From the IMG/VR virus record IMGVR_UViG_3300006874_000001, positions 479 to 64,478 of that record: 64,000 bases of DNA; one strand, 5' to 3'. The notes below the pieces were generated by a model. It searched no databases and was not told the DNA's origin. It was given only the letters and a program-made list of their open reading frames with translations. The position numbers and the translations under genes are program-made. Position 1 is the stretch's first letter. Each line of letters starts with the position of its first letter. Source of the stretch: a virus. Its lineage: Duplodnaviria; Caudoviricetes. This document shows positions 8,601 to 64,000 of this stretch, piece by piece.

Positions 8601-11600
8601 CGTAGTCAAAGTACTCGATCTCTCCAGTAAGGTACACGTTGTTCCCAACGATGACGGCATTTTCTGCAGACTTAATCGGTCTCCCCGATACATCGACAAA
8701 TGTGTTATGCTTGAACGGATTGAAGATTGCCTTCACTCCTTCGTAGCTAATCTCTGACATATCAGTGCTAACCAGCTCACCATCAACGCTGGCCATAGGA
8801 AACTTGTTCTCCTGGAAGGTGACAATCTTGTTTCTAGCCTCTTGATTCACATTCATCGTGACGTTAGATACTCGAACGACTGGAGCGTATTGCAAAGCCT
8901 CCCCAGTCGCTGTCTTGTCATGAATGGTCTGCACTGGAACTCCAGTGTTTTTCAACACATTCAGGTTCAGTCTAACGCCAACCTTGTCTCCGATCTCAGG
9001 GGTCTTCCCTTTGTTCATAACCCTGACAGAGTTTCTGTCAGTCTGAAGTGCTTGATCAACAAGCTCCTGTGTAATCTTACCTTCACCTTTCAGGGCGAGT
9101 GCTTCTGTATCAGACCTGTCTCTAAACAGTCTAGAGTCCTCGGCATTTACCTTGAGTCCTGCGTCACCAAAGTCAAGAGCCAGTTGCAATCTGCTCGAAG
9201 CTCTTCCTTCCATTTCGACCTCTTGCTGGGCGCTAATCGTTCCGCCTGTGGATGCGATCACCTCTGGTGCAGGGACATTTATGCTTCGTTCGACAAGCCT
9301 GTTGACCTCTTCCTGAGCCAAATTTTCCGACACACCCTCTTCTACACTCAAGTTTCTGTACGACCCATCCTCCATGATCTTCTCCATAATTGGATGCCAT
9401 GGTGTGTACTGGTCTCGTTGAGCTGTCTCGCTATCAAGGTCCATTCTGAACGCAGCGATTTGATCAAAGGCGTACATCATTTGCCCAACCTGAGCAATGG
9501 TGTAGGGATTGTCTGGGTTTCTTCTGTTGTGGTCATTTACAAACGCCTCAACAACTTTGTATCTCAGTTTCTTTGCGTCCTTATCAAAGTTTCTACCAGA
9601 CATGGGGTTAAACATATCCGCCAGCAGATCTCTTGCTGATCTGTTTCCAGCGTTAGCTTCTGCAAGCAAAGCCTTAACTAGCGTTTTGGTGTGTGCTTTT
9701 GGCGAGACCTTTCCTTTAAGAATCTTCAGCATCTCCGCCCTGTTTACCGTGACAGTCATTCCTCTTGGAACACCCACCTCGCCAGTAAACACTCCCATGT
9801 AGTCCATGAAGTGAGAGTCTTGTGTCAGGAAGTTCTGACCCAATGCCCCCATCATCGTAGCTGCAAAAGATCCAATCTTTGGTGCGCCAATCTTTCTTTT
9901 AGACATCTCCTCAGACGCAACAGGAAGGTCGCTCTTAATTTGAGATCTCTGAGTCATGTCTTGAACAAATCCATCAGCATCAAACTTTCCGTCAACAGAC
10001 AAGTACCTGTTAAAGAGATCGTTGACAGTCTCAAGAGTGGCGCCAATGGTCGTCATGGATGCACCACCAACACCAATGTTTGATTCAGCGAACTTTCTAC
10101 CCGTTGGCAGGTCAGCAGCCTCTCTTTGCTTGTCAGTTGTCTTTAGATCATCGATCAAGCTCTTCGGGATGAAGTCAAATGGCTTTCCTGGGATGTAGTT
10201 TCTCTTGAAGTTAGCTATGCAGGTGTGAAGGATGTTCATAGCCATCCGCATGTTCGGTTCAGCTGGCCTAAACGTAGACGTGGCTGCAACAAGAACATCT
10301 AAGATCGGCGAGAACTGCTCAACAGGAACGCCAGGGAACTCTGCTGACAACTGTGACAAATATTTTTGCTTAGCCCCTTCATACCCGCTAAAGAAGGTTT
10401 CTGGGTTTTCCATACCCAGCTCTTCCATCAGTTTCAAAGAGTATTGAAAGTCTGCAGTCATAGACTTTACGATTGCCTCCTTAACACCCGAGTTCTCATC
10501 CTCAAGCAAAGCAAGCTTTTCTGAGGATGACATGTCTTGAAAACGGATGTTCTTACCCGTGGCTTCCGCTACGGCAGCGTTGATCATTCTAGCACTCTCC
10601 ATAGCAACAAACTGATATGTCGTGCTCTTTGCCTGCTGCTGCCTTTTGTCAATCTCTTTTTGAGTAAACCCTAGCATCTTCATGGCCTCAACCTTTAATT
10701 CATGGAAGCCTTTCAAAGAGAGACCTTGAAGATCAGAGGTGTTGAGATCGACAAGGATGTCCCCAGCCCTAGACATGTCGATGAGTCGGAGAGACGCTCG
10801 TTCCGCAGCCTTATCGTCTCCAAAAATGATGGACTCAGCGTCTCTGAGTTGATCCATGGTGAGCGTTCTGATCTTGCCTACAGCGTCAATAGCGTCATCG
10901 TACTCGATCTCCAAAGCATCAAGAATAACAGCGAAGTCATTACCAACGTATGGCTGAAAATCCTCTTCGGTGTTCTTTCTTTGCTCTCTCACCTTAGCAG
11001 AGAGCTCGTTTTGGTATTTAATCCTGTTTACCCTACGAGCTTCGGCTTCAGCCATTTTTTGACCCTTAGTCTTTGGTGGCTTGAGGTTCCAGTTGATCAT
11101 CCTGTCAGCGTCAATGAACATACCAGTGTTCTCACCTCTGATGATCTTAACATTAGCCATTCTTTTAGGGAACTGGCCGTTGTTCGTAATGTGATTCCAG
11201 TAGTTGATGAAGTCCCACTTCCCTCTGAACGTCTTAGATCGAACCCTTGAGATGTTTGTGTGCTTGTTTGCGTGGCTGTACGTGACCTCAAACTCACCTT
11301 CTGCTGGGATGTCTTGAGGCATCATCAGTCTACCTGAGGAACGACCCTCTGCACCAGAGTCAACCATCTCCTTCACAGAAATATGAGAGCCGTCTTTAAC
11401 CGAATTGGCAAAGGCAGTTACAATCTGTGCAGCAGAGCTGTCAGATGAAATTACAAACTTGTTGTTGGTGGCAGAAAACAGGCTGTTAAACCACAGCTTG
11501 ACGTTTCCAATCAGTGACTTTTGAATGTCTGGGTTGGCTGCAAGAGCTGAGATCATCTCTGTAATCATCTCGTCCTGTGCAATCAACATAACCTTATCTT

Positions 11601-32345: not shown

Positions 32346-33797
32346 TTATCCCTTGATCATTACGTGCTGGTTTGCAGCGCGGGTGCAGAGTGCAACTTCA
32401 GATCTGTAGTGGAAGACAGCCTGGTCCTTACCAGTATCGCCGTTGTTGGTGTGACCCAAAACGCCGCCACCAGTTACCCAGTGCTCCATTTCACGAGAGT
32501 AGCCGTTAGCTTCCTTGTAGAACATAGCCAAAGCTGGAACGTTCACACCGCTGCGAGCATCCGTAACTTGAGTCAAAGGAACCATAGCGCCCTGGACGTA
32601 GTTAGAAGCACCCAAGAGGGTAGGATCATTCAAGAGCTTCCAGTCATGCTTGTGGAAGGTGTACCCGCCACGAGTGAACGACTTAAAGCCGAGCTTCACA
32701 GCCATGTCAGCGTCGTTGTTGAACGCACCGAACTGACCAGCCAAGCCTGCAGTCACACCAGTAGAGATACCGCTTGCGAGCATGTCATCGATAGCCAAAT
32801 CTTGAGCTCTGTTCACGTACATAGCGTACTCAGATGGAGCACCCTGCTTATCGAGCTCGATGATCAAGTCGTCAAACTCAGCGAAGCTGTCCATTGGGTT
32901 AGACGCTGCGTTCTGAACAACTACACCTCTGTCTTCAATGGCAGAGAAGTAACCTTCAGAACCTGCTCTGTCCGTGAGAGGAGCGTCAGACAATCCAGAA
33001 GCAGCCTTCTTCTCACCGAAGAGGAGCATCATCTCTCTCTTGTCTTCGAAGCGCTTACGAGCCTCTTGCTCACCCTTCAAGTACCAGCGGTAGTTTCCAC
33101 CACCCAAGTTCACCCAACCGATGTTGGTAGCTTGTGATCCGCTCACTTCGTAGCGATCTTTCACAATCATGAATGGGTTGGTGTACTTTCTGATACCCAT
33201 GTCTTGGTAAGCGTGTGGCTGAGCTGTGCCCTGAGCGTACAAGTTACCAATCTTGAGGAGTGTTCCGTTAGAAGCAGTGATGTCAGCAGCGGCCACATCA
33301 GTTTGATCGAGCTTGTTGAGCTTAATCTGGCTGTAAGTAGCTGGCTCCGTGTCGAGCGTACCGCCTTCAATAACGATGAATCTCACTCCAGTGCTAGCGT
33401 CCATAACGACGTCGTTGACTTGGAGCTTGTCATTCAAGCCTGTGTCAGTGTCGTCGAGCTGAACGAAGTCAGCGCCAGAAGCATCGATGGTTGCCGCCGT
33501 GTAGCTGATTGTTTCGTGACGACGACCGATCTCCCACCAGTTAACCTCGTCAGACTGACCGCCTGAGTTGATTGCTCCAGTGAGTTTCAAAAAGCCTGTG
33601 ATCCCCTGGTCGCCATAGGTTTCGACCAATTGATCCATGTGGAAGTCCTTGGTCGTCTTGACCAAGTTATCCAAAGTAGTGTAAGTCTCTGGGGAGACTC
33701 TGAACGACGAAGCGTTGGCAGTTGTGTTGCCTGCCGCTGTCGTAGTGTTATCGATATACGGGATGTTTGTACCCCGCGTAGATGAGAGATTACTCAT
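32346..33797 (-). CDS. Major capsid protein (crAss-like HK97 fold)
   Basis: 483 aa after the scaffold gene; VNWWE.GR, IVKDRYEVSGS, WYLKGE, LGFKSFTRGGYTFHK, HYRSE. Confidence 0.88.
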   Translation of the reverse strand: MSNLSSTRGTNIPYIDNTTTAAGNTTANASSFRVSPETYTTLDNLVKTTKDFHMDQLVETYGDQGITGFLKLTGAINSGGQSDEVNWWEIGRRHETISYTAATIDASGADFVQLDDTDTGLNDKLQVNDVVMDASTGVRFIVIEGGTLDTEPATYSQIKLNKLDQTDVAAADITASNGTLLKIGNLYAQGTAQPHAYQDMGIRKYTNPFMIVKDRYEVSGSQATNIGWVNLGGGNYRWYLKGEQEARKRFEDKREMMLLFGEKKAASGLSDAPLTDRAGSEGYFSAIEDRGVVVQNAASNPMDSFAEFDDLIIELDKQGAPSEYAMYVNRAQDLAIDDMLASGISTGVTAGLAGQFGAFNNDADMAVKLGFKSFTRGGYTFHKHDWKLLNDPTLLGASNYVQGAMVPLTQVTDARSGVNVPALAMFYKEANGYSREMEHWVTGGGVLGHTNNGDTGKDQAVFHYRSEVALCTRAANQHVMIKG

Positions 33798-44945: not shown

Positions 44946-45022
44946 TGGTACGCCTGACAGGATTCGAACCTGTGACCGTCTGCTTAGAAGGCAGATGCTC
45001 TATCCGACTGAGCTACAGGCGC
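44946..45022 (-). tRNA. tRNA-Arg(UCU)
   Basis: GCGCCTGTAGCTCAGTCGGATAGAGCATCTGCCTTCTAAGCAGACGGTCACAGGTTCGAATCCTGTCAGGCGTACCA folds as a full cloverleaf with encoded CCA. Confidence 0.95.
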
Positions 45023-45032
45023 ATAGTCAAAT

Positions 45033-45962
45033 TTACCTAATAAGAGTCACAAACCCTTGAATAGAAACAACTTTTGTTGATCTGAAGGTTTTTCCTTTGA
45101 TGGTCCAGGTGTAAACTCCGTCTGAAACGTAAGATAATCCACCCTCGCCAAACCACTTATCTGAAGGGTCTTCGCTCCACCAAACAACCTGACCCCATCT
45201 GTTGTAAACCTTACACTCCCACTCTAGCCAGCAGCTAGAAAGCGTAATGGGTCTCCAATAGTCGTTGATGTTGTCACCGTCTGGCGTAAAGACGTTTGGA
45301 ACGTGGATGCATGGGTCTTCACACGGGTCTCCCACTGGTCGTACAGGCCTGGTTGGTCTTACTGGGTCCACTGTGGTCGTGGTGTCTCCGTCTACTGGTT
45401 CTGGATCAACAGGGACAGGAGGTGGAGGGGGGTCGCAACCGCCGTCTAGTGAGAACTCCAACCAGTTGTTTGCAATGTCATCGTCTGGGTACGGGAATCC
45501 CCCAATACCAGGTTCCCCGAAAATGTCGTCGCTGTCATTGATCTGACTAACAGTTAGGATAACGCACTCCTCGAAGAAAGACCCCTCTTCCAGAGCCTCA
45601 TTCCAGCACTGTAGTGTTCCGCTTCCAGCCAAAGAAGTGTCATCTAGTATATTGAAAAGCACAGTGTCTCCAGCCTGAAGGATGTTGTCGCTACCCTCTC
45701 CAATGTCAAATCCTGGGAAGTCCAATGGGTACAGCAGGAGCATAAATTCGTCATCGCCAAAACAAGGCCATGGAGTGATCTCTAGCGGCGGGTTGAACCC
45801 TAGAGCGAGAATAAACTCACCAATGCTGTCTGCCTCTGTGCCACACTGTCCTCCGTTCACTGTGATCAATAGGTCTGTAGAGATAGGGTCAAAACCCAGG
45901 ATCTCAATGTCACACTGACCATACGAAATCAGAGGGATGAAGAACAGAAGCAGCTTTTTCAT
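45033..45962 (-). CDS. Secreted protein with type B T9SS C-terminal sorting domain (CHU_C, gliding-motility-associated)
   Basis: Signal peptide MKKLLLFFIPLISYG|Q, Pro-rich linker, and VPNVFTPDGDNIND...VYNRWGQVV...W.G...DGVYTW...GFVTLIR. Confidence 0.88.
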   Translation of the reverse strand: MKKLLLFFIPLISYGQCDIEILGFDPISTDLLITVNGGQCGTEADSIGEFILALGFNPPLEITPWPCFGDDEFMLLLYPLDFPGFDIGEGSDNILQAGDTVLFNILDDTSLAGSGTLQCWNEALEEGSFFEECVILTVSQINDSDDIFGEPGIGGFPYPDDDIANNWLEFSLDGGCDPPPPPVPVDPEPVDGDTTTTVDPVRPTRPVRPVGDPCEDPCIHVPNVFTPDGDNINDYWRPITLSSCWLEWECKVYNRWGQVVWWSEDPSDKWFGEGGLSYVSDGVYTWTIKGKTFRSTKVVSIQGFVTLIR

Positions 45963-47875
45963 TGTACGAAGATCTTCTTGGTTTTCGTGGCGCTCTTTTG
46001 AATGTAGATGCCTGGGGCTAGGTTCTCTAACGGTCCAGGGACTATCCTTCCAGACATGTCGTAGTAGACTGGTGAGGCATAGCTTTGATCGGTTTGGCTC
46101 GCGCCTTGCTCAGTGAGCTCAATGATTTCGGACACCTCTAAGCTAGTTTCTGCCGAAACAATGCAACCTGACTCCGCAAAGTAAGTCAGGAACTCAAGGA
46201 TGTCCATGACGTTTACCACGCCGTTTCCATCTAGGTCTGCGATGCACTCTCCTTCACACTGATAGTCACCGACAAGAATGGCAACGTCTTCCGCTCCAAC
46301 TACCCCGTCGTTGTCAAAATCTGCTGGGCACACATTAACCTCTTCCGTCTCCACGCAAAAATTAAACACTAGCTGGTTCCAGTCTCCAGAGACGTCTACA
46401 TCTAAAGGGCCTCCATTCAGCCAAACCAAGACTTCGCCTCCGTAAGGGATACCGTCTCCTCCTGTGTCATAGATGATCAGGTTGTAACAGCCGTTAGGTA
46501 GGCACGTCTCGTAGCTTCTAGTGGTAATTCCAGCAGGCCAGTTCCCGTCCTCAATGACAGGGTTCTTGCTGCCATCAGGCAAAAGTACCCAGTCTGTCTC
46601 TGATGCAAAGAAGTCGCTGGTAAAGTCCATCTCCCATAGCGCACCTGGCTCGTAAGCAACGCTACCAGACGCTGTGTTGTTAGCTTCGTACTGATCGCTA
46701 CCAGAGAACAGCGTCACAGAGAAGTCTCCCTGCAGTTCCACGCCACTGAACAAGACTTCGTAGGACTGCCCGTAAGCGATGTCGTTAAGCGTGTAGTTGT
46801 ATGACGCCCCGCTAGCTGTTAGGGTAACCGTTGCTACTGGGGTGGCGAGTGGGCCGACGCCTGTAACAGTTACTGTTACGTCCTGCTCGGGTAAGCAGAA
46901 TGGCGTTTTGTAGTCCACGTTGGATACAGCAACATCGTAGTCTACAGGAGGTACGCATGCAAGGTTGTCATTCCATAGGTCATACCTTCCACCCAACAAG
47001 CAGTCATGCATGCGCTCGGCCTGACCAGTAGTGTACATGTTTCTGCACTGCTCACCAGTGTAATCCATGTAGTTTTCTGTGATTGCGTCAGGACAAGATG
47101 GCTGGCTACAGAAGTAGTTTGTAGTGGTTACAGGGGTGTCACAAATCTTATCCCCTTGAGTCTCACAGTTGGTCTCTTGAGCGCAAGAGAAGGTGTTGGC
47201 AAAGGTGTGATCGATAGTCAGGTAGTGACCAAGCTCGTGAACGAATGTCTTACCAAGATTGAAAGTAGAGACAATCATCTTGTTCGAAAGCATGACCACT
47301 CCGTCACGACAGTCATTCGTTGGGCCTAGGTAGGCATACCCTTGAATACCGCCTCCGCCGTTATTCCCGTCGATCTCCGTCACAATGTAGATGTTGACGT
47401 ACCTGTCTACATCCCAACAGGCGTAGCTCTTCATCGCTAGATCATCCATTCCAGACTGAGTGGCGCTTGGAGAAACACCATCTTGCACGTACTCTGGCTC
47501 ACCTGACAGGTCGTGACGAGTGATCCCTGTTGTAGGGTTTCCATCAGGGTCTCTCTGTGCAAGGCAGAAGTCAATCTTGGTGTCAACTCCGCTGCCATCC
47601 CCAACAGATCCTGGGACTTTTCGAAACATCTCGTTGGCTCGACCAAGCATCTCGATGACCTGCTCGTCAGTGATGTTTGCACCCTCCCCAATGGCTTGGC
47701 CAGTATGCATGATGTGAAAAACGATAGGGAGAGTCGCCCCCTCAACGTCGTTCAAATCGACATTAGATCGGCTTGAAAGCCCCATTGTTTTGACATTGCT
47801 AGACAGAACAACGCACTCCTGAGAGTGCGTCATGAGGCTGATTGTCAGCAAGATAGCTGTTAAAATTCGTTTCAT
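45959..47875 (-). CDS. Secreted M43 (pappalysin/ulilysin-like) zinc metalloprotease with putative type A T9SS CTD
   Basis: Signal peptide ending THS|Q; LPIVFHI, HELGHYLTIDH, ICDTP and NYMDY (Met-turn); two dockerin-like EF-hands; C-terminal YYDMSGRIV...LAPGIYI...KKIFVQ. Confidence 0.9.
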   Translation of the reverse strand: MKRILTAILLTISLMTHSQECVVLSSNVKTMGLSSRSNVDLNDVEGATLPIVFHIMHTGQAIGEGANITDEQVIEMLGRANEMFRKVPGSVGDGSGVDTKIDFCLAQRDPDGNPTTGITRHDLSGEPEYVQDGVSPSATQSGMDDLAMKSYACWDVDRYVNIYIVTEIDGNNGGGGIQGYAYLGPTNDCRDGVVMLSNKMIVSTFNLGKTFVHELGHYLTIDHTFANTFSCAQETNCETQGDKICDTPVTTTNYFCSQPSCPDAITENYMDYTGEQCRNMYTTGQAERMHDCLLGGRYDLWNDNLACVPPVDYDVAVSNVDYKTPFCLPEQDVTVTVTGVGPLATPVATVTLTASGASYNYTLNDIAYGQSYEVLFSGVELQGDFSVTLFSGSDQYEANNTASGSVAYEPGALWEMDFTSDFFASETDWVLLPDGSKNPVIEDGNWPAGITTRSYETCLPNGCYNLIIYDTGGDGIPYGGEVLVWLNGGPLDVDVSGDWNQLVFNFCVETEEVNVCPADFDNDGVVGAEDVAILVGDYQCEGECIADLDGNGVVNVMDILEFLTYFAESGCIVSAETSLEVSEIIELTEQGASQTDQSYASPVYYDMSGRIVPGPLENLAPGIYIQKSATKTKKIFVQ

Positions 47876-54252: not shown

Positions 54253-54372
54253 TCACCCTTTCTTTTTCTTCCACATGCTCAGAGCAATGGCAATGGACTG
54301 CTTATGAGGTTTCCCCTCACCCTTAAGGATCTTGATTTTCCTTGAAACAAACCGATTCTTAGTAGTAGACAT
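54253..54372 (-). CDS. 39-aa basic protein (not in ORF track)
   Basis: MSTTKNRFVSRKIKILKGEGKPHKQSIAIALSMWKKKKG; the Q.IAIALS motif recurs in small phage proteins. Confidence 0.6.
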   Translation of the reverse strand: MSTTKNRFVSRKIKILKGEGKPHKQSIAIALSMWKKKKG

Positions 54373-54963
54373 AGCTATCCTCGCGTATAAACGTCTTATT
54401 TGCCGTTTTTCCTTCCAAAAACAACATCAGACTCAGCATTGCTTTCACGCCTTGCTTCATATAGCGAAGGTATAAACTTTTTTCTTAAAAGTCAACCCTA
54501 AAGTCAACGTTTAATCAACAGTGTCTAATGCATTGCTAGTCAATAGGTTAGGTTTTGAAGGGTGAAAACCCGAGAAAAATAGTGGGGTTAAAAATTTTGA
54601 TCAGTAATACGCAGATTGGGGATTAACTATACTATACGACGTCACGCATGCATTCCCGAAACGCAATACGACACGCGTTTGCACGTGAAAATCGACATTT
54701 TGCCTGTAACTTTCAGCTTTTTTAAGTTGCTGAGTCTCATTGCGTTATGGCTGGTAGGGTGAAGCACTGCGTTAGGTTACACATCGCAACCCGCTGAAGC
54801 TCTGTGCGGGACAGTCACACCCCTGCTCACACACCTTGCACACACTCACCACACACGGGGACACACATCCCCACGTCGTCCTCGCGTGTATACGTGCACA
54901 CGCTAATTCTTCGCGCCTGTTTTACCGAAGGTAAAATCACGCATGGAATTAGTCCCTTGAAAA

Positions 54964-54996
54964 TTTGGAAACAAGCTACCCATCGCCATATCTTTG
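54964..54996 (+). promoter_or_regulatory. Early sigma-A promoter P1
   Basis: TTTG, 21 nt spacer, TATCTTTG. Followed by the hairpin TGGTTCGA-AGG-TCGAGCCA and an A/C-rich leader. Confidence 0.75.
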
Positions 54997-55046
54997 TGGT
55001 CGTTGGTTCGAAGGTCGAGCCACGCAAACATCAAATACCTAATCAC

Positions 55047-55616
55047 ATGGCAAACGTCCATTACACCCCAACCCACTGCCCAGACACAGGGCGCAAGTTC
55101 ACCCGAGCCGAGCGCAAGGCTGCCAACAAGGCCAAGTACACGGCATCCGTCAAGAGCAAGCCCTCACCTGCCAAGGCGAGCAAGGGCAAGAGCGCATCCA
55201 AGCCTGCGAAGGCAGGGCGTCCAACCCTGACGGCCAAGCAGTTCGATGGCATGGTGAAGCGCAACATGAAGCTCACCAAAGCCCAATTGGTTGACATCAT
55301 CATGAGCGGATATGAGGTCGAGTCCAAGCCTGCGTCCAAGCCTGCGTCCAAGCGTAAGCCCAAGCGTATGAGCAAGAACACCAAGTTGGAGGTTCAAGCC
55401 CAACGTGTGAGCCGAGGCATAGCACAGACGTACATCAAGCCCGAAGAGACGAAGGTCAAGAACGGGAAGAAGATGACCTACGACGAGTACGTTGGCGTCC
55501 CTGCTGAAGTGCAAGCCTACCCCGAGTACGCAGAGTTGCGAGCCATCGGGTACAGCGTGGAAGACGCAGTGCGCTACGTCTCTGCACTCATGGACGGAGC
55601 ACCCCAAATCGCCTGA
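55047..55616 (+). CDS. First early gene: Lys/Ala/Pro-rich protein with histone-H1-like composition
   Basis: ATG at 55047; SKPA repeats including a 12-nt tandem repeat at about 55322-55353. Confidence 0.75.
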   Translation: MANVHYTPTHCPDTGRKFTRAERKAANKAKYTASVKSKPSPAKASKGKSASKPAKAGRPTLTAKQFDGMVKRNMKLTKAQLVDIIMSGYEVESKPASKPASKRKPKRMSKNTKLEVQAQRVSRGIAQTYIKPEETKVKNGKKMTYDEYVGVPAEVQAYPEYAELRAIGYSVEDAVRYVSALMDGAPQIA

Positions 55617-55634
55617 GCCATGTTAAGAACAACC

Positions 55635-56049
55635 ATGCACTTCATAGACACGCTCGTGGCCGTAGCAGGCTCCGTGTCTACATACAAGGCGGTCAAGCAC
55701 GACCCCGAGGCAGAGGCGTACATGATGGACGCTCACCTTGACGAGGAACTCGAAATGTACTTGTCATGAAGAACTATTGTCCTTGGGAGCAAGCATACCA
55801 GCTATGCGATGGCGCCTACACGAGAGAGCAAATCGACGAGATGCCACTATGTGAAATCATGGAGATAATCCTAGGCACATGATGACGCTCGTCCTGCTCA
55901 AAGCGCTTGCAAGCGTACCCACAGGGTGCGAGGTACGGAACATCTCGTTCTCGTATCAGACGTGCTACTATGTGGCGTTCGAGCGTGACGGACGCTTGGA
56001 GGCGGTTGATGGGTGCGTTGTCCTCGAAGAGGATGACGAGGAACCCTGA
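55635..56049 (+). other. Three translationally coupled early micro-ORFs (55635-55769, 55766-55882, 55879-56049)
   Basis: ATGA overlaps chain three acidic ORFs of under 60 aa. Confidence 0.55.
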
Positions 56050-56121
56050 AATGTTAAAAGTGTTAATTTTCTTGGAATCTAGAACCTGACCTCGTATCTT
56101 TGGGGTCGAATCAAACATCAA
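56047..56121 (+). promoter_or_regulatory. Early promoter cassette P2
   Basis: TGAAATGTTAAAAGTGTTAA; TTG, 20 nt, TATCTTTG; GTCGAATCAAACATCAA. Confidence 0.75.
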
Positions 56122-56125
56122 ACAC

Positions 56126-56317
56126 ATGACCTATACACAGACCTGCGAGTTCATCGCACAGCGAATCATGGAAGGACGCGACTACGCCTTCATCAACGAC
56201 AGCTTCATCAATCTCCCTACACCACAGCGGTCAGGGACATACACACAACAGCACACATACGCCCTGCTCAAGGCTCGTGAGATTGTGGATAACCTACGGG
56301 GTGTTCAGGCACACTGA
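56126..56317 (+). CDS. Early hypothetical protein
   Basis: 63 aa after P2; its TGA stop lies inside the hammerhead core. Confidence 0.65.
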   Translation: MTYTQTCEFIAQRIMEGRDYAFINDSFINLPTPQRSGTYTQQHTYALLKAREIVDNLRGVQAH

Positions 56318-56357
56318 TGAGTCCTGATTGGACGAAACGCCGTGAGGCGTATGTGTC
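56308..56357 (+). ncRNA. Type I hammerhead ribozyme
   Basis: GGCACA-CTGATGA-GTCC-TGATT-GGAC-GAAA-CGCC-GTGA-GGCG-TA-TGTGTC. The core and three stems are complete; predicted GUA cleavage after 56351. Confidence 0.92.
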
Positions 56358-56391
56358 AAAGCAAACGTGGCTTTGAGGGGCGTAGCCCGCA

Positions 56392-56458
56392 AGGTGTGAT
56401 GGTGTAACAGGATAGCACGCCACTATGTGGAGGTGCGGGTTCGAATCCCGCCACATCT
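56392..56458 (+). ncRNA. tRNA-like RNA with truncated anticodon arm
   Basis: Acceptor AGGTGTG/CACATCT, D-arm GTGT..GG..GCAC, perfect T-arm GCGGG-TTCGAAT-CCCGC. The anticodon arm is only CCAC-TAT-GTGG and there is no CCA. Confidence 0.7.
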
Positions 56459-56488
56459 AAAATTTGTCAAACATCAAAAACATTAACC

Positions 56489-56662
56489 ATGATAAACATT
56501 TGGGAGTACTACACATACTTCGGACGTGACCGCGACGACTGGGCGGGGCCTCACACCGTGAAGGCATCCACTCGTGATGAAGCCATCCGCAAGGCACAAC
56601 ATGACTGCTTTGGCTCATGCGAAACAGTTTGGAAAAAGACATTCAAAATCGTAAAATCATGA
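56489..56662 (+). CDS. Early hypothetical protein, 57 aa (not in ORF track)
   Basis: MINIWEYYTYF...VKASTRDEAIRKA; A-rich leader and ATGA coupling to the next gene. Confidence 0.6.
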   Translation: MINIWEYYTYFGRDRDDWAGPHTVKASTRDEAIRKAQHDCFGSCETVWKKTFKIVKS

Positions 56663-56856
56663 CACAAGAACAATGCGAACGTGCAGTCAAGTCACTGCAA
56701 AACCACGGCTTCAAGGCCTCTCACGTAATTGGTGCGCCTGACGACCACGGGGTGTGGTTGGATGCCGTATGGACTGACGAACTCGGTGATGCGTGTAGCT
56801 TCCGCATCCACGACGAAGAAATCGAATGGTGGCAAACCCAAGACAAACCAGCATGA
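56659..56856 (+). CDS. Early hypothetical protein
   Basis: ATG at 56659, coupled on both sides. Confidence 0.6.
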   Translation: MTQEQCERAVKSLQNHGFKASHVIGAPDDHGVWLDAVWTDELGDACSFRIHDEEIEWWQTQDKPA

Positions 56857-57035
56857 CAGACCACACAAAATGCCACAAGTGCGGAGGCGAGGGCATCTTC
56901 CTCGGCTCACAAGAAACAGGGTACAGCGCAGGCGGTTGGGTACAGCAGTGCCACGACTTCCAATGCGAGGACTGCCAAGCTACATGGGACGTGACCATGG
57001 AAATCACACCGACAAACCGATACAACCATGACTGA
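56853..57035 (+). CDS. Early zinc-ribbon protein
   Basis: CHKCG...CEDCQATW. Confidence 0.65.
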   Translation: MTDHTKCHKCGGEGIFLGSQETGYSAGGWVQQCHDFQCEDCQATWDVTMEITPTNRYNHD

Positions 57036-57171
57036 CATCGTAAACGTAATCATCAAGCTTGCCCGCATGCAAGGGCAGGCAATCGATCGAGTGGAGGCAG
57101 AGATGCTGAACAAAGCGGTCGAGGAAGCACACGACAAGTGGCAATCCGAAAAGCAACAGGATAGTGACTGA
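57028..57171 (+). CDS. Early hypothetical protein, 47 aa
   Basis: Overlaps the upstream stop and ends at cassette P3. Confidence 0.5.
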   Translation: MTDIVNVIIKLARMQGQAIDRVEAEMLNKAVEEAHDKWQSEKQQDSD

Positions 57172-57243
57172 AATGTTAAAAGTGTTAAAAAACTTGCAAA
57201 CTTGGAATTGCTGACGTAATTTAGCAGTCGAATCAAACATCAA
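57169..57243 (+). promoter_or_regulatory. Early promoter cassette P3, a copy of P2
   Basis: Identical 20-mer; TTG, 20 nt, TAATTTAG; identical GTCGAATCAAACATCAA. Confidence 0.7.
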
Positions 57244-57252
57244 TTTAATCTC

Positions 57253-57882
57253 ATGAAACAATATGCAGTAATACACGGAGTCGCAGGACTTCACGAGGGC
57301 TACTCCGAGACCACTTGCGAGTTCTTCCCCAAGCGTTCATTCGCAGAGAAGCACATGAAGCAACTCATCGCAACCTTCCGAGAGGATGAGACGTGCGTTC
57401 ACATCAACGACATTCAGGGCGACTTCCTTGACGCAAGCGTAATTGGAGGTGCTGACCTGTCCATGACGAGATGGTGGGAAGATTACCATGCCTCCGTGCC
57501 CGCAGAGTTTGACCACGACGACTACATGGAATCTCGGTCTGACGACGTTTGGGTAGAGGTACTCCGAATCATCGAGCTTGATATGTCCAACCGCGACGCA
57601 AACACCGAGTCGTGTTGGCTCACGTGGGACCAACTCGAATGCAGACCTGCATGGGACTACACACCATTGTGCATGTCCTTAGTGGCTCGTGTAACATCTG
57701 ACGTCATGGACACTACAAGTGACGACCACCCTACCCAAGCTCTTCACAACCTTGCACAGCTCGGTGATTTTGTCTCGGCTGTGTACTACCGCAATCATGC
57801 CATCATCGACGTTGACGACTATGTGATGCACGCTTTCCGAATCCCCAAACCCAAAAACTCTGACAGCTATGACGCACAATGA
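57253..57882 (+). CDS. Early hypothetical protein
   Basis: 209-aa acidic ORF after P3. Confidence 0.7.
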   Translation: MKQYAVIHGVAGLHEGYSETTCEFFPKRSFAEKHMKQLIATFREDETCVHINDIQGDFLDASVIGGADLSMTRWWEDYHASVPAEFDHDDYMESRSDDVWVEVLRIIELDMSNRDANTESCWLTWDQLECRPAWDYTPLCMSLVARVTSDVMDTTSDDHPTQALHNLAQLGDFVSAVYYRNHAIIDVDDYVMHAFRIPKPKNSDSYDAQ

Positions 57883-58026
57883 AATGGTACGACGTGTGGT
57901 AGAAGCACGCATGAATCGAATGAACATACAGCAATGCCTCAAAGCACTTCGCAACTACATGATTACGGACTACGGAGGATGCGACATGGAAGAACTCCAT
58001 GAATTTTACCAAAAATACGCAGGATA

Positions 58027-58987: not shown

Positions 58988-59605
58988 ATGCAATCAGTAC
59001 AAGAATCCAAGCAAGAGCTTGAAGCGGCTATCCGCTACGCAGAGAACGCTATCTCCTCTGCCCAAGGCACCATCGAGTCGATGGAGTTTCGCCAAGAGAT
59101 GGCACAGAAGAACTACCAAGAGCAGACAGGGCGTGAAGAAGCGCTGACCAAGCAGGTGCAAGAGCTCGAATCCAAGGTGCAGGGTCAGTACGACGACATC
59201 GTCATGCTCGAACGTGAGGTTGCCAACCTCAAAGAGTGCCTCAAGATAGAGACGGCAGCACTTGAGCGCATTCGAGAGGACATCCCTACCATGCCCGTCA
59301 TCCCCAAGGCTGTTGCCATCGCCATCTTCCGTGAGGGTGTGGCACATGGTGTAGCCAACGCTTGCGATGAGATTGACAACGACGCTGGAATCAGCATCGA
59401 AGAGAGCGAATACGTTGGAGGGTTCGAGGTATCGTTCAGCCGACACATCGACCTCTCTGACCACCTCGACCTTGACTGGATGCGCGACAAGGTGGGTGAC
59501 TACGATGAAGCATCTGTCATTGAAGCCCTCAAGAACCTGTGTGCAGACAAGGAGTTCGAGTGCCGTATCCACGGGGTTGACGACCAAGAGCAAAAGGTTA
59601 ATTGA
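58988..59605 (+). CDS. Coiled-coil early protein
   Basis: ATG at 58988 after an A-rich leader; N-terminal coiled coil and acidic C-terminal domain. Confidence 0.7.
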   Translation: MQSVQESKQELEAAIRYAENAISSAQGTIESMEFRQEMAQKNYQEQTGREEALTKQVQELESKVQGQYDDIVMLEREVANLKECLKIETAALERIREDIPTMPVIPKAVAIAIFREGVAHGVANACDEIDNDAGISIEESEYVGGFEVSFSRHIDLSDHLDLDWMRDKVGDYDEASVIEALKNLCADKEFECRIHGVDDQEQKVN

Positions 59606-59662
59606 TGTTTGGCCTTGAGGGGCTTGTGTGACTGAAACGTCAGTCCGCCCCTCTTCACTTTC

Positions 59663-59734
59663 AAGGGAGCGCAGTCGGTGCGTACGTCTGAGTTGTAGGC
59701 AGACGGCAGTTGTGTTCGAATCCCAACCTCCCTT
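59663..59734 (+). ncRNA. Second aberrant tRNA-like RNA
   Basis: AAGGGAG/CTCCCTT acceptor, CGCA/TGCG arm, CGTCTG-9nt-CAGACG arm, GTTGTG-TTCGAAT-CCCAAC T-arm; no CCA. Confidence 0.6.
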
Positions 59735-59749
59735 CAATTCAATTCACAC

Positions 59750-60217
59750 ATGAACATTTTCTATTTACACGAAGACCCGCACGTTGCGGCCACCTACATG
59801 TACAACAAGCATGTAGTGAAGATGATTCTCGAATCAGCGCAGATGTTATGTACGGCGCACCACCACTATGGCAACCACGACGTGCCATACAAGAAGGCGC
59901 ACTACAACCATCCTAGCACAATTTGGGCAAGGTCTTCACGAAACCAATACTATTGGCTATACCTTCATATGATGGCCTTGGGTGACGAATACACGCGTCG
60001 CTACGGCAAGGTGCATAGCTCGATCGAAAAATGTGGTGAGGTGCTACGCTACGCTCCTGAAGATATGCCCAACCTTCCCTTCGAGCAACCGCCACAATGC
60101 ATGCCTGACGAGTACAAAGACCCGTGTAGCGTGACCGCGTACTGGAACTACTACATCGGGGATAAACACAACGTAGCTAACGCAGATGAGCAAATTAAAA
60201 CAGCCCACTTCACATGA
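59750..60217 (+). CDS. Pyrimidine-dimer DNA glycosylase (DenV/Pyr_excise)-like protein
   Basis: MNIFYL...KHVVKMILESAQML...HYNHPSTIW...EY..RYGKVH...PQCMPD. Confidence 0.8.
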   Translation: MNIFYLHEDPHVAATYMYNKHVVKMILESAQMLCTAHHHYGNHDVPYKKAHYNHPSTIWARSSRNQYYWLYLHMMALGDEYTRRYGKVHSSIEKCGEVLRYAPEDMPNLPFEQPPQCMPDEYKDPCSVTAYWNYYIGDKHNVANADEQIKTAHFT

Positions 60218-63198: not shown

Positions 63199-63520
63199 AG
63201 AGCTTCTTCTGCATAAGAACGAAAAGTACGGGAACTCAGCACTTGAACCGCTGAACATTTTCTCGGAGGCAAATGCCGTAGCTGGTATCAAGGTAAGAAT
63301 TGACGACAAGCTGAAGCGCATACAGAACGCGGGGCTCGTAGACGAAACAGAAGACACACTCCAAGACCTTGCAGGGTACTTCATCCTGCTGATGATTGCA
63401 AAAGAAAATGAAAGTAACTCTATTCAAGAACGTATACGACAAGACCACCCCGCACCACGTGACGATGAAGACCGCTTTGCGTCGCATACAGGAGGGGAAA
63501 TCGAGTTCGGCTATATCTGA
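63155..63520 (+). CDS. Nucleotide-modification-associated domain 1 (DUF1599-like) protein
   Basis: KNEKYGNSA...VRIDDKLKRI...EDTLQDLAGY.IL. Confidence 0.75.
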   Translation: MNTSQRIKEKCKRLEELLLHKNEKYGNSALEPLNIFSEANAVAGIKVRIDDKLKRIQNAGLVDETEDTLQDLAGYFILLMIAKENESNSIQERIRQDHPAPRDDEDRFASHTGGEIEFGYI

Positions 63521-64000
63521 TGTCCGAAGTGGCAACAAACAGGCGAAACTCGGGCTACCAGTCGTATGCTTCAGCGGGGAGTTCTCTAAGAGGTCGGATG
63601 ATGCGCTTTTCGAGCATTCGGGATACATTATCCTCGACTTTGATCACGTTGATGTTGACGAGACCAAGAAGCATCTTGGCACGGACGATCATGTTTATTC
63701 ATGCTGGACGTCGCCGAGCGGAGACGGAATCAAGGCACTCGTCAAGATTACGAACCCTGAAAGGCACAGAGACCATTTCCGAGCGCTTGTAACATACTTC
63801 GACAAGCAGTACGGACTGCAGGTCGATGAGTCAGGAATTAACGAGTCTCGCGCATGTTTTGAGTCTTACGACCCAGACATCATCATCAAGGACGAGAGCA
63901 AGCCGTTTGGTGCGTTCATGTCTGAGATGGCTCAGCAACAGGTTCTAGTCACAGACAAGGGTCAGTACACAGACTACATGAAGCTCAACCTAGCGGCTCG
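63408..64000 (+). CDS. BT4734/VirE-N-like primase domain protein (3'-truncated, not in ORF track)
   Basis: MKVTLFKN...KLGLPVVCFSGEF...HSGYIILDFDH...WTSPSGDGIKALV...SRACFESYDP; open to the window end. Confidence 0.85.
   Translation, partial: MKVTLFKNVYDKTTPHHVTMKTALRRIQEGKSSSAISDVRSGNKQAKLGLPVVCFSGEFSKRSDDALFEHSGYIILDFDHVDVDETKKHLGTDDHVYSCWTSPSGDGIKALVKITNPERHRDHFRALVTYFDKQYGLQVDESGINESRACFESYDPDIIIKDESKPFGAFMSEMAQQQVLVTDKGQYTDYMKLNLAA

Follow-up and report, generated by a model that had tools for sequence, protein, structure and literature searches.

mascRNA and MEN-beta are tRNA-like RNAs with a shortened anticodon arm, in which RNase P cleavage at the fold both frees the small tRNA-like RNA and generates the upstream RNA's 3' end. 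HDV-like theta ribozymes reportedly act in 3'-end processing of decoding suppressor tRNAs. The tRNA cluster of phage T4 includes stable tRNA-like RNAs, which are processed by RNase P. In engineered guide-RNA release cassettes, a short RNA is placed between a 5' hammerhead and a 3' tRNA, and its ends are set by processing.

Hammerhead cleavage leaves a 2',3'-cyclic phosphate and a 5'-OH end, according to the accessible text of PMC6765202. In phages and prophages, hammerheads with the conserved core lie between the genes of polycistronic phage-type transcripts, several per operon; tandem intergenic copies cleave in vitro, and transcript processing is their proposed role (Perreault et al., 2011; PMC3088659). 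In plant mitochondria, tRNA-like folds of non-canonical shape that keep a conserved T arm, the t-elements, lie within mRNAs, and their ends coincide with mRNA termini; they provide a precedent for the use of such folds as mRNA end signals. The presumed cutting enzymes are RNase P and RNase Z, and a released t-element may gain a non-encoded C or A (Forner et al., 2007; PMC1920247). An acceptor stem, T stem and T loop suffice as a model substrate of RNase P, which also cleaves tmRNA precursors, viral tRNA-like structures and mRNAs (PMC11143913). In literature drawn mostly from non-subscription journals and taken without supplements, no description was found of a phage hammerhead beside a tRNA-like element, or of the mimics described below.

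The DNA analysed here (the window) is a stretch of 64,000 nt, positions 479 to 64,478 of IMG/VR record IMGVR_UViG_3300006874_000001. It comes from a lytic-looking freshwater phage of ~64 kb, probably with a Bacteroidota host, one of a clade of phages of ~60 kb whose relatives include phages of Flavobacterium and Cellulophaga; its nearest TerL relatives among cultured phages are 40-48% identical. A previous sequence-only reading had placed a ribozyme, hairpins and a tRNA-like fold at 56308-56458 (+), and a check of the sequence finds all of them at these positions. The locus is made up as follows:

56126 to 56317 (+): upstream early ORF, 63 aa, from the ORF list.
56308 to 56357 (+): hammerhead ribozyme with open stem I (type I topology), from its sequence, covariation in 9 cassette variants and copies in the clade.
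56351/56352 (+): predicted self-cleavage site, after GUA, from the H17 position and hammerhead chemistry (PMC6765202, accessible text).
56356 to 56376 (+): hairpin 1, a 7-bp stem UCAAAGC/GCUUUGA with a 7-nt loop, pairs kept in 14/14 variants.
56378 to 56388 (+): hairpin 2, GGGC-GUA-GCCC, then the linker GCA (56389-91); stem identical in 14/14 variants, loop RUA.
56392 to 56459 (+): non-decoding tRNA mimic (TLS-1), with A56459 as discriminator, from the Rfam tRNA score and pairing in 14 variants.
56460 to 56488 (+): leader of the next gene, with the clade leader motif UGUCAAAC[A/U]UCAAA and no Shine-Dalgarno sequence.
56489 to 56662 (+): downstream early ORF, 57 aa, 'DRDDW' family, from the ORF list.

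In the hammerhead, stem I is formed by GGCACA (56308-13) with UGUGUC (56352-57), the conserved core consists of CUGAUGA (56314-20) and GAAA (56334-37), and the NUH triplet is GUA (56349-51); stem II is GUCC/GGAC with the loop UGAUU, and stem III is CGCC-GUGA-GGCG. The stop codon of the upstream ORF (TGA, 56315-17) lies inside CUGAUGA. If the ribozyme cuts between A56351 and U56352, as predicted, the upstream mRNA would end in a 2',3'-cyclic phosphate and the product beginning with UGUGUC would carry a 5'-OH; the RNA end that the sequence-only reading predicted at 56352 is the first base of this 3' product. The three helices recur across the clade, where the stems pair in all 63 distinct hammerheads (85 copies), with 6/6 pairs in stem I, at least 4 bp in stem II and at least 5 bp in stem III. 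There are 5 sequence types of stem I (which was partly fixed by the search pattern), 8 of stem II and 11 of stem III; position N7 is occupied by C, U or A, and at H17 60 copies have C and three have A. In the cassette variants, stem III shows both compensatory and length changes. With regard to position, 62 of 70 copies in 58 viral loci lie 19-36 nt 5' of an ORF start, two lie 46-48 nt before one, three precede the hairpin-and-mimic module, and three are placed otherwise. Judged from this distribution, the hammerhead is the generic intergenic module of the clade and is not special to the cassette; the special part is the hairpins and the tRNA mimic.

The Rfam hammerhead models remain below cut-off at the cassette (Hammerhead_3, 24.4 vs 48.5; RAGATH-1-hammerhead, 14.9 vs 56.3), and at gathering level Rfam reports no hammerhead in the window or in 7 related loci. 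The minimum-energy fold of the single cassette sequence contains neither the hammerhead nor the cloverleaf, as another long-range structure is preferred (z -2.14). For these two reasons, the support for the cassette is comparative, not thermodynamic. The pattern CTGANGAG..CGAAAC has 2 matches in the window vs 0.07 expected by chance. The other copy (33511-33553, minus strand) lies inside a structural gene and does not figure among the matches to the core that form two or more stem II pairs.

The tRNA-like fold proper comprises 67 nt (56392-56458). It has a 7-bp acceptor stem, from A56392-U56458 to G56398-C56452, a 3-nt connector, a D arm (GUGU/GCAC) with GG in its loop, a 4-nt variable region and a T arm reading GCGGG-UUCGAAU-CCCGC. 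The bases labelled U8, A14, G18, G19, A21, G26, A44, U48, G53, U54, U55, C56, A58 and C61 presumably occupy the canonical tertiary positions. The anticodon arm is replaced by a stub, CCAC-UAU-GUGG (4 bp, 3-nt loop). TLS-1 has the make-up of a tRNA-like processing signal, with an intact acceptor/T-arm stack and elbow, a non-canonical remainder and a position between ORFs of the same strand. It reaches the Rfam tRNA cut-off (RF00005; 36.2 bits vs gathering 29), which the more distant variants L141, L184, L191 and L192 do not. ARAGORN calls no tRNA at the fold in the window, as the sequence-only reading had expected; given the variant with a 6-nt loop in L001, it reports 'tRNA-?' in the same register as TLS-1. 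The sequence lacks CCA and continues with AAAA, which, together with a stable hairpin 3 nt before the predicted site and A at -1, is atypical for good bacterial RNase P substrates. In the phage's own tRNA-Arg, CCA is encoded. Two identities were considered for the mimic and rejected. An alanine identity (G3-U70 and A73, as in tRNA-Ala and tmRNA) was dropped because the third acceptor pair, G-U in 11/14 variants, is G-C in L183 and C-G in L191 and L192. As a tmRNA, 67 nt would leave no room for a tag frame; the Rfam score is 20.1 vs 47, and ARAGORN finds no tmRNA.

Homologous cassettes are found at 14 other loci. In 14 distinct variants, the acceptor keeps 7/7 and the T stem 5/5 pairs in 14/14, with 6 acceptor types, and hairpin 1 likewise keeps 7/7 pairs in 14/14, five of which are swapped by compensatory change (GUGAG/CUCAC) in L141, L183, L184 and L192. 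In alignment A2, all 276 of 276 cells pair and 8/23 pairs show compensatory change; most pairs of the nine close variants (88-97% identical) never vary, and few evolutionary events may lie behind the compensatory changes that separate the groups. As controls, slid versions of A2 pair in 40-53% of cells, and 0/500 shuffles reach the observed score. From its covariation, the module is an RNA encoded on the plus strand. On the opposite strand, the G-U pairs of the stems become C-A mismatches. The stretch from acceptor to T stem varies from 25 to 65 nt, and the anticodon region is a stub with a 3-, 4- or 6-nt loop, no arm at all, or a long irregular arm (rod), but the 5-bp anticodon stem with 7-nt loop that decoding calls for is found neither in the window nor in any of the 14 variants. 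Such freedom of the anticodon region would be expected if selection acts only on the part that is read by tRNA-end enzymes. These data bear out the proposal of the sequence-only reading that the four elements form one RNA cassette, and show it to be conserved. They also support a maintained non-decoding mimic, as the normal tRNA that it took as the mark of simple decay occurs in 0/14 variants. The arrangement that it singled out, a hammerhead 5' of such a mimic, is present in the window; it is less distinctive than supposed, since the hammerhead is generic to the clade and the hairpin-plus-mimic module also occurs without one, behind another tRNA-like element, in L141, L183, L184 and L192.

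Matches outside these viral loci are scarce. Bacterial genomes give 0 matches to a first pattern and five to a second (L186-L190), with ~4 expected by chance and no T arm behind any of them; L185 and L194, from the viral scans, are chance matches as well. Among cultured phages, nothing matches 55000-58000 or the region of the second mimic described below, and the cassette as query returns fragments only: Agrobacterium phages OLIVR1-3 match it at a hammerhead core and other phages at T arms. In Flavobacterium phage elemoF 6-3D, one hammerhead-like site comes with a similar leader and a poor stem II, and a further site is doubtful. Regions of this kind attract spurious ORFs from gene callers: an annotated ORF runs over the hammerhead-like site of the cultured Flavobacterium phage, and minus-strand ORFs are likewise called over the cassette (56268-56456 and others). 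The latter are considered non-coding because length changes of 1 nt and 3 nt in the stub and stem III would break any frame.

The 3' end of the mimic lies 28-40 nt before the next ATG in 13/15 loci, namely all those in which the start of a downstream ORF is visible (L003 stops short of one, and in L002 the ORF extends beyond the locus); this spacing is the same niche as that of the hammerhead cut. Sequencing runs that contain half or more of the sampled words number 21 for DNA; the one RNA run, a metatranscriptome with a share of 0.07, yields three contigs, placed on 57349-57864 only, outside the cassette. Giant virion proteins raised the possibility of an N4-like hairpin promoter, which was abandoned as neither PHROGs nor Pfam finds a virion RNA polymerase.

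The reading preferred here, with a probability of roughly 0.55, is RNA punctuation of the early operon, by which self-cleavage and host tRNA-end enzymes would release a 40-nt hairpin RNA and the tRNA mimic. The cassette would be an RNA-level processing element inside an early polycistronic transcript. Once UGUGUC is transcribed, the hammerhead, conserved and covarying as it is, would fold and cut at 56351/56352, and the upstream mRNA would end just past its stop codon with a structured, cyclic-phosphate 3' end. Hairpin 1, whose outer two pairs use U56356 and C56357, also the final two bases of stem I, could then close fully by pulling these two bases from stem I. According to the substrate rules, RNase P may next cut at 56391/56392 and a 3' enzyme after ~56459, the mimic having retained the acceptor/T-arm stack and the D/T elbow that these enzymes are expected to read. 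The products would be a 40-nt two-hairpin RNA with a 5'-OH, a ~68-nt mimic unable to decode, and a downstream mRNA beginning ~30 nt before its ATG with the standard leader of the clade, which lacks a Shine-Dalgarno sequence. The small RNA of ~40 nt and the mimic foreseen by the sequence-only reading are consistent with this anatomy and with the accessible RNase P substrate rules (PMC11143913). Hammerheads and tRNA mimics may be two interchangeable 'scissors' between early genes, each giving its cistron a short 5' leader.

A second mimic in the window also ends shortly before an ORF start:

59617 to 59653 (+): structured hairpin 5' of TLS-2, inner stem covarying among relatives.
59663 to 59734 (+): non-decoding tRNA mimic TLS-2, with 18 distinct variants in the clade.

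TLS-2 has the acceptor AAGGGAG/CUCCCUU, the D arm CGCA-GUCGG-UGCG, an arm of 6 bp with a 9-nt loop, and a T arm with a 52:62 mismatch; its 3' end lies 15 nt before the ATG at 59750, no hammerhead is present, and both Rfam and ARAGORN miss it. The hairpin before it combines an outer helix (GAGGGGC/GCCCCUC) with an inner hairpin (GACUG-AAACGU-CAGUC), the loop of which resembles that of hairpin 1. In relatives, further tRNA-like families sit directly after stop codons, and the clade has at least 5 different families, which have in common only those features that processing enzymes need. Rfam reports nothing in 54300-56320, in the array of L184 or for hairpins 1 and 2. The generic hammerhead, the modules that lack one and TLS-2 favour mRNA punctuation over the other role suggested by the sequence-only reading, that of a decoy for tRNA-targeting defences.

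The main rival to punctuation, possible but held only tentatively, is a small-RNA gene, in which the mimic and/or the 40-nt RNA would be selected as trans-acting and the hammerhead and RNase P would only mature them. End-modifying toxins, the CCA-adding enzyme, EF-Tu or a defence sensor, as readers of the acceptor and T arm, could be the targets. One point that speaks for it also speaks against punctuation, namely that a hammerhead immediately upstream makes the mimic redundant as a cutter. Downstream of the module stand at least four unrelated gene families that in other phages follow a plain hammerhead leader, and the module is for this reason taken to be portable and not tied to a gene. L141, L183 and L184 have tandem arrays of two or three mimics ahead of a terminator-like hairpin, an arrangement closer in appearance to a cluster of small-RNA genes than to punctuation. 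At the DNA level, the cassette keeps 88-97% identity, vs 36-75% for the neighbouring proteins. Lastly, none of the 14 variants departs from the sequence of hairpin 2, of the linker GCA or of the first two acceptor pairs, while the rest of the acceptor covaries. Such sequence-level conservation would seem beyond the reach of a pure processing signal and is partly ascertainment: the distant variants (L141, L183, L184, L191 and L192/L193) were found by patterns requiring hairpin 2 and the linker, so that their wider invariance is not independent evidence, and the sequence of hairpin 2 was left free only in the search that yielded the 9 close variants. Against a trans-acting role, the common denominator of the tRNA-like families is limited to processing features, TLS-2 is placed exactly like a punctuation mark, and the 39 window proteins scanned include no recognisable partner (no RNA ligase, CCA enzyme, synthetase or RNA-binding family). 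Should this rival be right, the released RNAs would form a new class of small RNAs in phages, mimics of that half of a tRNA which many enzymes and toxins read.

It is also conceivable, if rather doubtful, that the payload is the 40-nt two-hairpin RNA and not the mimic, released between two RNA scissors and bound by a specific protein. In all 14 variants, a tRNA mimic follows this RNA and either a hammerhead or another tRNA mimic precedes it; being flanked by two scissors, it would obtain defined 5'-OH and 3'-OH ends. Hairpin 2 and the AAACGU loop motif, which recurs in the hairpin before TLS-2, might then be the site of a host or phage protein, for instance in an anti-defence decoy. The RNA folds as two hairpins with a z of only -1.26. 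Inspection by eye of pairing between the hairpin 1 loop and the mimic, and of a C(GCAA)G hairpin at the linker, showed no conserved partner. Were this reading true, the many tRNA mimics of the clade would form a general small-RNA maturation system.

An unlikely alternative is that the mimic is not released by RNase P and that hairpins and mimic together cap the 5' end, stabilising the downstream mRNA or aiding its translation without a Shine-Dalgarno sequence. 5'-terminal stem-loops are known to stabilise bacterial mRNAs, and hairpin 1 begins 4 nt from the new 5'-OH end. The atypical RNase P site (hairpin at -4, A at -1) and the unencoded CCA fit a cap as well. However, the downstream gene varies among the variants, the acceptor/T-arm stack and elbow nucleotides, which a mere cap would not need, are intact, and in L184 and L192 the module precedes a long hairpin or other elements and not a gene directly.

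It is very improbable that the inverted repeats act as DNA, be it as a promoter, a site of recombination or an operator bound by a dimeric regulator. Both repeats are perfect palindromes (7-N7-7 for hairpin 1, 4-N3-4 for hairpin 2), and modules could be shuffled with the conserved sequences of hammerhead and leader as homology arms. The sequence of hairpin 1, however, changes completely with its pairing kept, which fits an RNA and not a sequence-specific operator, and the G-U pairs in the stems are strand-specific. With regard to promoters, a sigma-70 scan finds a weak site at 56464-56493 and is no better than chance (4 found vs 3.7 expected), and a candidate Bacteroidota -7 box after the mimic, TAAAATTTG (TAnnTTTG-like), was rejected as it is not kept in relatives when compared by eye. 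Weaker still is the idea of a functionless, decayed tRNA pseudogene that lies beside an unrelated hammerhead by accident, for it resembles a tRNA minus its anticodon loop but is already contradicted on comparative grounds by 14 variants in which compensatory changes have kept the acceptor stem, the T stem and hairpin 1 fully paired, by a cassette far better conserved than its flanking genes, and by the finding that no relative has a normal tRNA at this position or with this sequence and no tRNA of the clade resembles TLS-1.

If punctuation is correct, a clade of aquatic Bacteroidota phages splits its early operons into single-gene messages by two RNA-encoded scissors, the self-cleaving hammerhead and a tRNA mimic that exploits host tRNA-end enzymes. 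Several unannotated families of non-decoding tRNA-like RNAs, which tRNA finders and Rfam do not report, would be added as well. Compared with the intergenic hammerheads of Perreault et al. (2011; PMC3088659), as the accessible text describes them, the ribozyme here has a fixed leader ~25 nt before the ATG clade-wide and is followed by two hairpins and a mimic; in that text, tRNA appears only in the title of one reference. Under the punctuation reading, intergenic phage hammerheads would gain a concrete, testable function, that of supplying mRNAs with a short 5' leader for translation in hosts that work without Shine-Dalgarno sequences. HDV-like theta ribozymes also couple a small self-cleaving ribozyme to a phage tRNA-type gene (Kienbeck et al., 2024; PMC10879173), but the ribozyme fold is different, and in the present locus a hammerhead precedes a non-decoding mimic by 40 nt; the words 'hammerhead' and 'tRNA-like' never occur in the accessible text of that paper.

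The tRNA-like domain of tmRNA shares with the mimic an acceptor and T arm without a decoding anticodon arm, and Rfam aligns both ends of the mimic to tmRNA, but the mimic has no mRNA-like reading frame or pseudoknots. mascRNA and MEN-beta are eukaryotic nuclear RNAs, and with a score of 18.8 vs 42.5 on Rfam RF01684 the mimic is an analogue, not a member, of that family. The engineered ribozyme-RNA-tRNA cassettes are man-made, and the T4 cluster RNAs lack a ribozyme; the likeness of both to the present locus is drawn from their general description. Should the 40-nt RNA prove to be the payload, the cassette would be the natural counterpart of these engineered constructs. As for plant mitochondrial t-elements, they are organellar, have no ribozyme partner and have experimentally mapped ends (Forner et al., 2007; PMC1920247, accessible text), whereas the phage cassette is known from sequence alone; if it punctuates the early operon as proposed, it would be a phage version of organellar tRNA punctuation.

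All four elements that the sequence-only reading had joined into one RNA cassette are present in the window:

56308-56357, plus strand: hammerhead ribozyme, cut predicted between A56351 and U56352
56356-56376, plus strand: hairpin 1
56378-56388, plus strand: hairpin 2
56392-56458, plus strand: tRNA-like fold of 67 nt, the mimic TLS-1

The UGA in the hammerhead core CUGAUGA is the stop codon of a 63-aa upstream ORF. This is the only hammerhead in the window; Rfam hammerhead models score below their cut-offs on it, and a single-sequence energy fold of the cassette favours a different structure. TLS-1 reaches 36.2 bits with the Rfam tRNA model (cut-off 29), with 3 bases replacing 9 anticodon-loop model positions, and ARAGORN calls no tRNA there, in keeping with the pseudo or undetermined call that had been expected. 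Its acceptor stem extends from A56392-U56458 to G56398-C56452 (the register with a 12-bp acceptor/T stack), and a 3-base connector separates it from the D stem. By our own reading, the core and elbow letters are all canonical (U8, A14, G18, G19, A21, G26-A44, A15-U48, G53-C61, U54, U55, C56, and A58). The two hairpins and TLS-1, hereafter the module, look like a ~100-nt insertion into a hammerhead leader, and the motif UGUCAAA is present at both sides. In sequencing run X3, a single DNA contig connects positions 56295 and 56658 through 14 other letters (its shorter side spans 43 letters; likeness threshold, 85), a weak hint that the cassette and the 57-aa ORF are missing from a related phage in that sample.

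All but a small part of a complete virus record (64,478 bp, direct terminal repeats) lies in the window. The structural genes, among them those for terminase, portal, and two giant virion proteins (3274 and 2720 aa), form a long minus-strand block, after which a plus-strand block of many small genes, whose leaders have no Shine-Dalgarno sequence, begins at ~55 kb. We infer that the host belongs to the Bacteroidota. The large terminase of the phage shares 40-48% identity with its counterparts in Flavobacterium (Elemovirus), Cellulophaga, and other Bacteroidota phages, and a type IX secretion C-terminal domain protein lies at 45033-45962. Such a host is also indicated by the type IX secretion C-terminal domain protein and M43-type metallopeptidase at 45033-47875 (minus strand) and by a BT4734-like N-terminal domain at 63396-63998 (plus strand). 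The sequencing runs with this sequence are labelled freshwater metagenomes. The 39 proteins scanned included none recognisable as an RNA polymerase, RNA ligase, CCA enzyme, or integrase, and on that ground we assume transcription by the host and a lytic lifestyle. A normal tRNA-Arg (TCT) with encoded CCA adjoins the terminase gene (44946-45022, minus strand), and relatives have Arg-TCT, Ile-TAT, and Met-CAT tRNAs.

Architecture-only search patterns (hammerhead core, gap, T loop) located complete cassettes in 14 loci, 3 of them viral and 11 from metagenomes, giving nine distinct variants, the window included, that are 88-97% identical; in pattern scans of bacterial genomes, matches occurred at chance level only. 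In the nine-variant alignment, all 401 cells of the 46-pair structure are paired (slid partners, 32-52%), with compensatory change at only 2 pairs, a consequence of how similar the sequences are. The stub stem CCAC/GUGG is invariant across these variants, and its loop is UAU, UUAU, GAA, or UGAAAG. Proteins beside the cassette are only 36-75% identical among relatives, and the gene 3' of it belongs to at least four unrelated families. The mimic ends 28-40 nt 5' of the next ATG in 13 of 15 rows of variants; in the other two, the locus ends first (L003) or the ORF runs off the locus (L002).

A 23-nt BLAST match in locus L141 prompted searches with patterns based on hairpin 2 and the linker, which recovered five distant variants (L141, L183, L184, L191, and L192/L193). 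In these, the sequence of hairpin 1 differs while its 7 pairs are the same, and the T and acceptor stems covary, with six acceptor types. The stretch from acceptor to T stem varies from 25 to 65 nt: the anticodon-type arm is absent in L141 and L184, whereas between these stems L183 has an insert, L191 an 11-bp rod, and L192 an irregular arm. In a 12-sequence alignment, 276 of 276 cells are paired (slid controls, 40-53%), compensatory changes fall at 8 of 23 pairs, and the covariation score was reached by none of 500 shuffles.

A ribozyme and stem I pattern matched 55 viral stretches, mostly from contigs of 13 to 78 kb, many of them ~60 kb. Together with the cassette loci, these stretches contain 85 hammerhead copies with 63 distinct sequences, each with three fully paired stems, of 5, 8, and 11 types. 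Among 70 copies in 58 viral loci, an ORF starts 19-36 nt past the cut in 62 and at 46-48 nt in 2; three more are followed by the hairpin-mimic module and three by something else. The 3' product starts with UGU[G/A]UC in every case, usually followed by AAACUUCAAA. From this spacing and constant product start, the hammerhead-leader unit is therefore the normal intergenic punctuation of this clade of Flavobacterium- and Cellulophaga-related phages, which agrees with the transcript processing proposed earlier for phage hammerheads (PMC3088659; PMC6765202). The mimic 3' end and the hammerhead cut occupy the same niche relative to the next ATG.

The unit itself (L131-L182 and others) runs from the cut through UGU[G/A]UCAAACUUCAAA to the ATG, with up to four copies per 3-kb stretch (L180 648-2237, four in 1.6 kb). 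Other arrangements also occur. In L191 (~10960-11142), a clade hammerhead with a ~130-nt insertion in stem III lies directly 5' of the hairpin-mimic module. In L135 (4258-4400) and L181 (5613 onward), another hammerhead-like core, in which the 15.1-16.1 pair would be A-A, immediately follows a hammerhead, and after it comes further structured sequence in place of the leader. The cultured Flavobacterium phage elemoF 6-3D (NC_055853.1 16030-16137; L197 1480-1540, minus strand) has a hammerhead-like site, in which stem II is poor, then UUUGUCAAACUUUAAAAAC and an ATG; the opposite-strand "hypothetical protein" annotated over this site may be spurious, and the site is a possible entry point for laboratory work. 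In Agrobacterium phages OLIVR1-3, an unannotated stretch of 27 nt at ~3966-3992 matches the core and stem II of the window hammerhead (96%).

A second mimic family, TLS-2, emerged when T loops paired with a fitting acceptor stem of 7 bp were sought. Some relatives also have tandem arrays that lack a hammerhead:

59617-59653, plus strand: G-rich hairpin 5' of TLS-2, inner loop AAACGU similar to the hairpin 1 loop
59663-59734, plus strand: TLS-2, non-decoding and unannotated, with 18 distinct variants in the clade
L141 2715-3018; L183 12170-12389; L184 12572-12753 (minus strand): two or three tRNA-like elements in tandem

TLS-2 lies between an ORF at 58988-59605 and, 15 nt 3' of it, the start codon (ATG, 59750) of the gene for a pyrimidine-dimer glycosylase. 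As in TLS-1, the acceptor stem, D arm, and T loop are conserved, and one arm is of highly variable length (63-130 nt for the whole element); neither Rfam nor ARAGORN detected it. In the three arrays, TLS-2 stands immediately 5' of UGUGUC-hairpin 1-hairpin 2-TLS-1, with a third element of ~129 nt (TLS-3) between TLS-2 and the TLS-1 module in L141, and a long terminator-like hairpin ends each array. UGUGUC is retained there, though needed by no ribozyme stem. Other loci have more tRNA-like families directly after stop codons. For instance, a 76-nt element (acceptor CCGCGAG/CUCGCGG, T loop UUCAAGU), not called by ARAGORN, follows the stop codon immediately in L003, L156, L158 (11818-11893), and L172. 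The acceptor of a 65-nt element in L159 (3123-3187), AGGCACA/UGUGUCU, has the same sequence as clade hammerhead stem I; one closing helix seems able to enclose a core of either kind, ribozyme or tRNA-like.

Sequence and comparison show that the cassette consists, at the RNA level, of a hammerhead, two hairpins, and a tRNA mimic that is L-shaped and has no decoding arm, all on the plus strand within co-oriented genes. We put the probability that its selected role is punctuation of the early transcript at roughly 0.55. The hammerhead would cleave itself at 56351/56352, and RNase P would cut at 56391/56392, because an acceptor stem, T stem, and T loop suffice as a substrate for that enzyme, which also cleaves other tRNA-like RNAs (PMC11143913); the 3' end would be trimmed after the discriminator. 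The main rival, compatible with punctuation and in itself rather unlikely, is a trans-acting role for the mimic or for the 40-nt RNA (56352-56391). It is favoured by the redundancy of a mimic 3' of a hammerhead, the portability of the module, the tandem arrays of mimics, and the conservation of hairpin 2 in sequence, which past the nine close variants is partly built in, as the five distant ones required hairpin 2 to be found. Three minor alternatives are a cis-acting 5' cap, a pseudogene (the sequence-only reading had named a normal tRNA in relatives as the sign of decay; none occurs among the variants compared, and no clade Arg-TCT, Ile-TAT, or Met-CAT tRNA is similar to TLS-1), and a DNA site (the strand is fixed, because several stems contain G-U pairs).

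Hammerheads also adjoin tRNA genes elsewhere. On unrelated contigs of viral and metagenome origin that have tRNA arrays (two measure 347 kb and 87 kb), the cut is predicted exactly at the first tRNA base (L006 6483-6720, L016 2319-2439, and L018 857-988); L006 has two tandem ribozyme-tRNA units, and in L016 and L018 the Rfam tRNA matches begin at the predicted cut. For these tRNAs, the ribozyme would take the place of RNase P.

Intergenic hammerheads of phages are already known (PMC3088659), and the HDV-like theta class supplies known cases of ribozymes adjoining phage tRNAs (PMC10879173); the text of the latter paper does not mention hammerheads or tRNA-like elements. In full-text searches of the main texts of papers, mostly from outside the subscription journals, neither the coupling of a hammerhead to a non-decoding tRNA mimic nor mimic families of the TLS-1/TLS-2 type were found described. 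tRNA-like processing signals are already known from organelles and eukaryotic nuclei. The nearest precedent for tRNA-like punctuation is the t-elements of plant mitochondria (PMC1920247).
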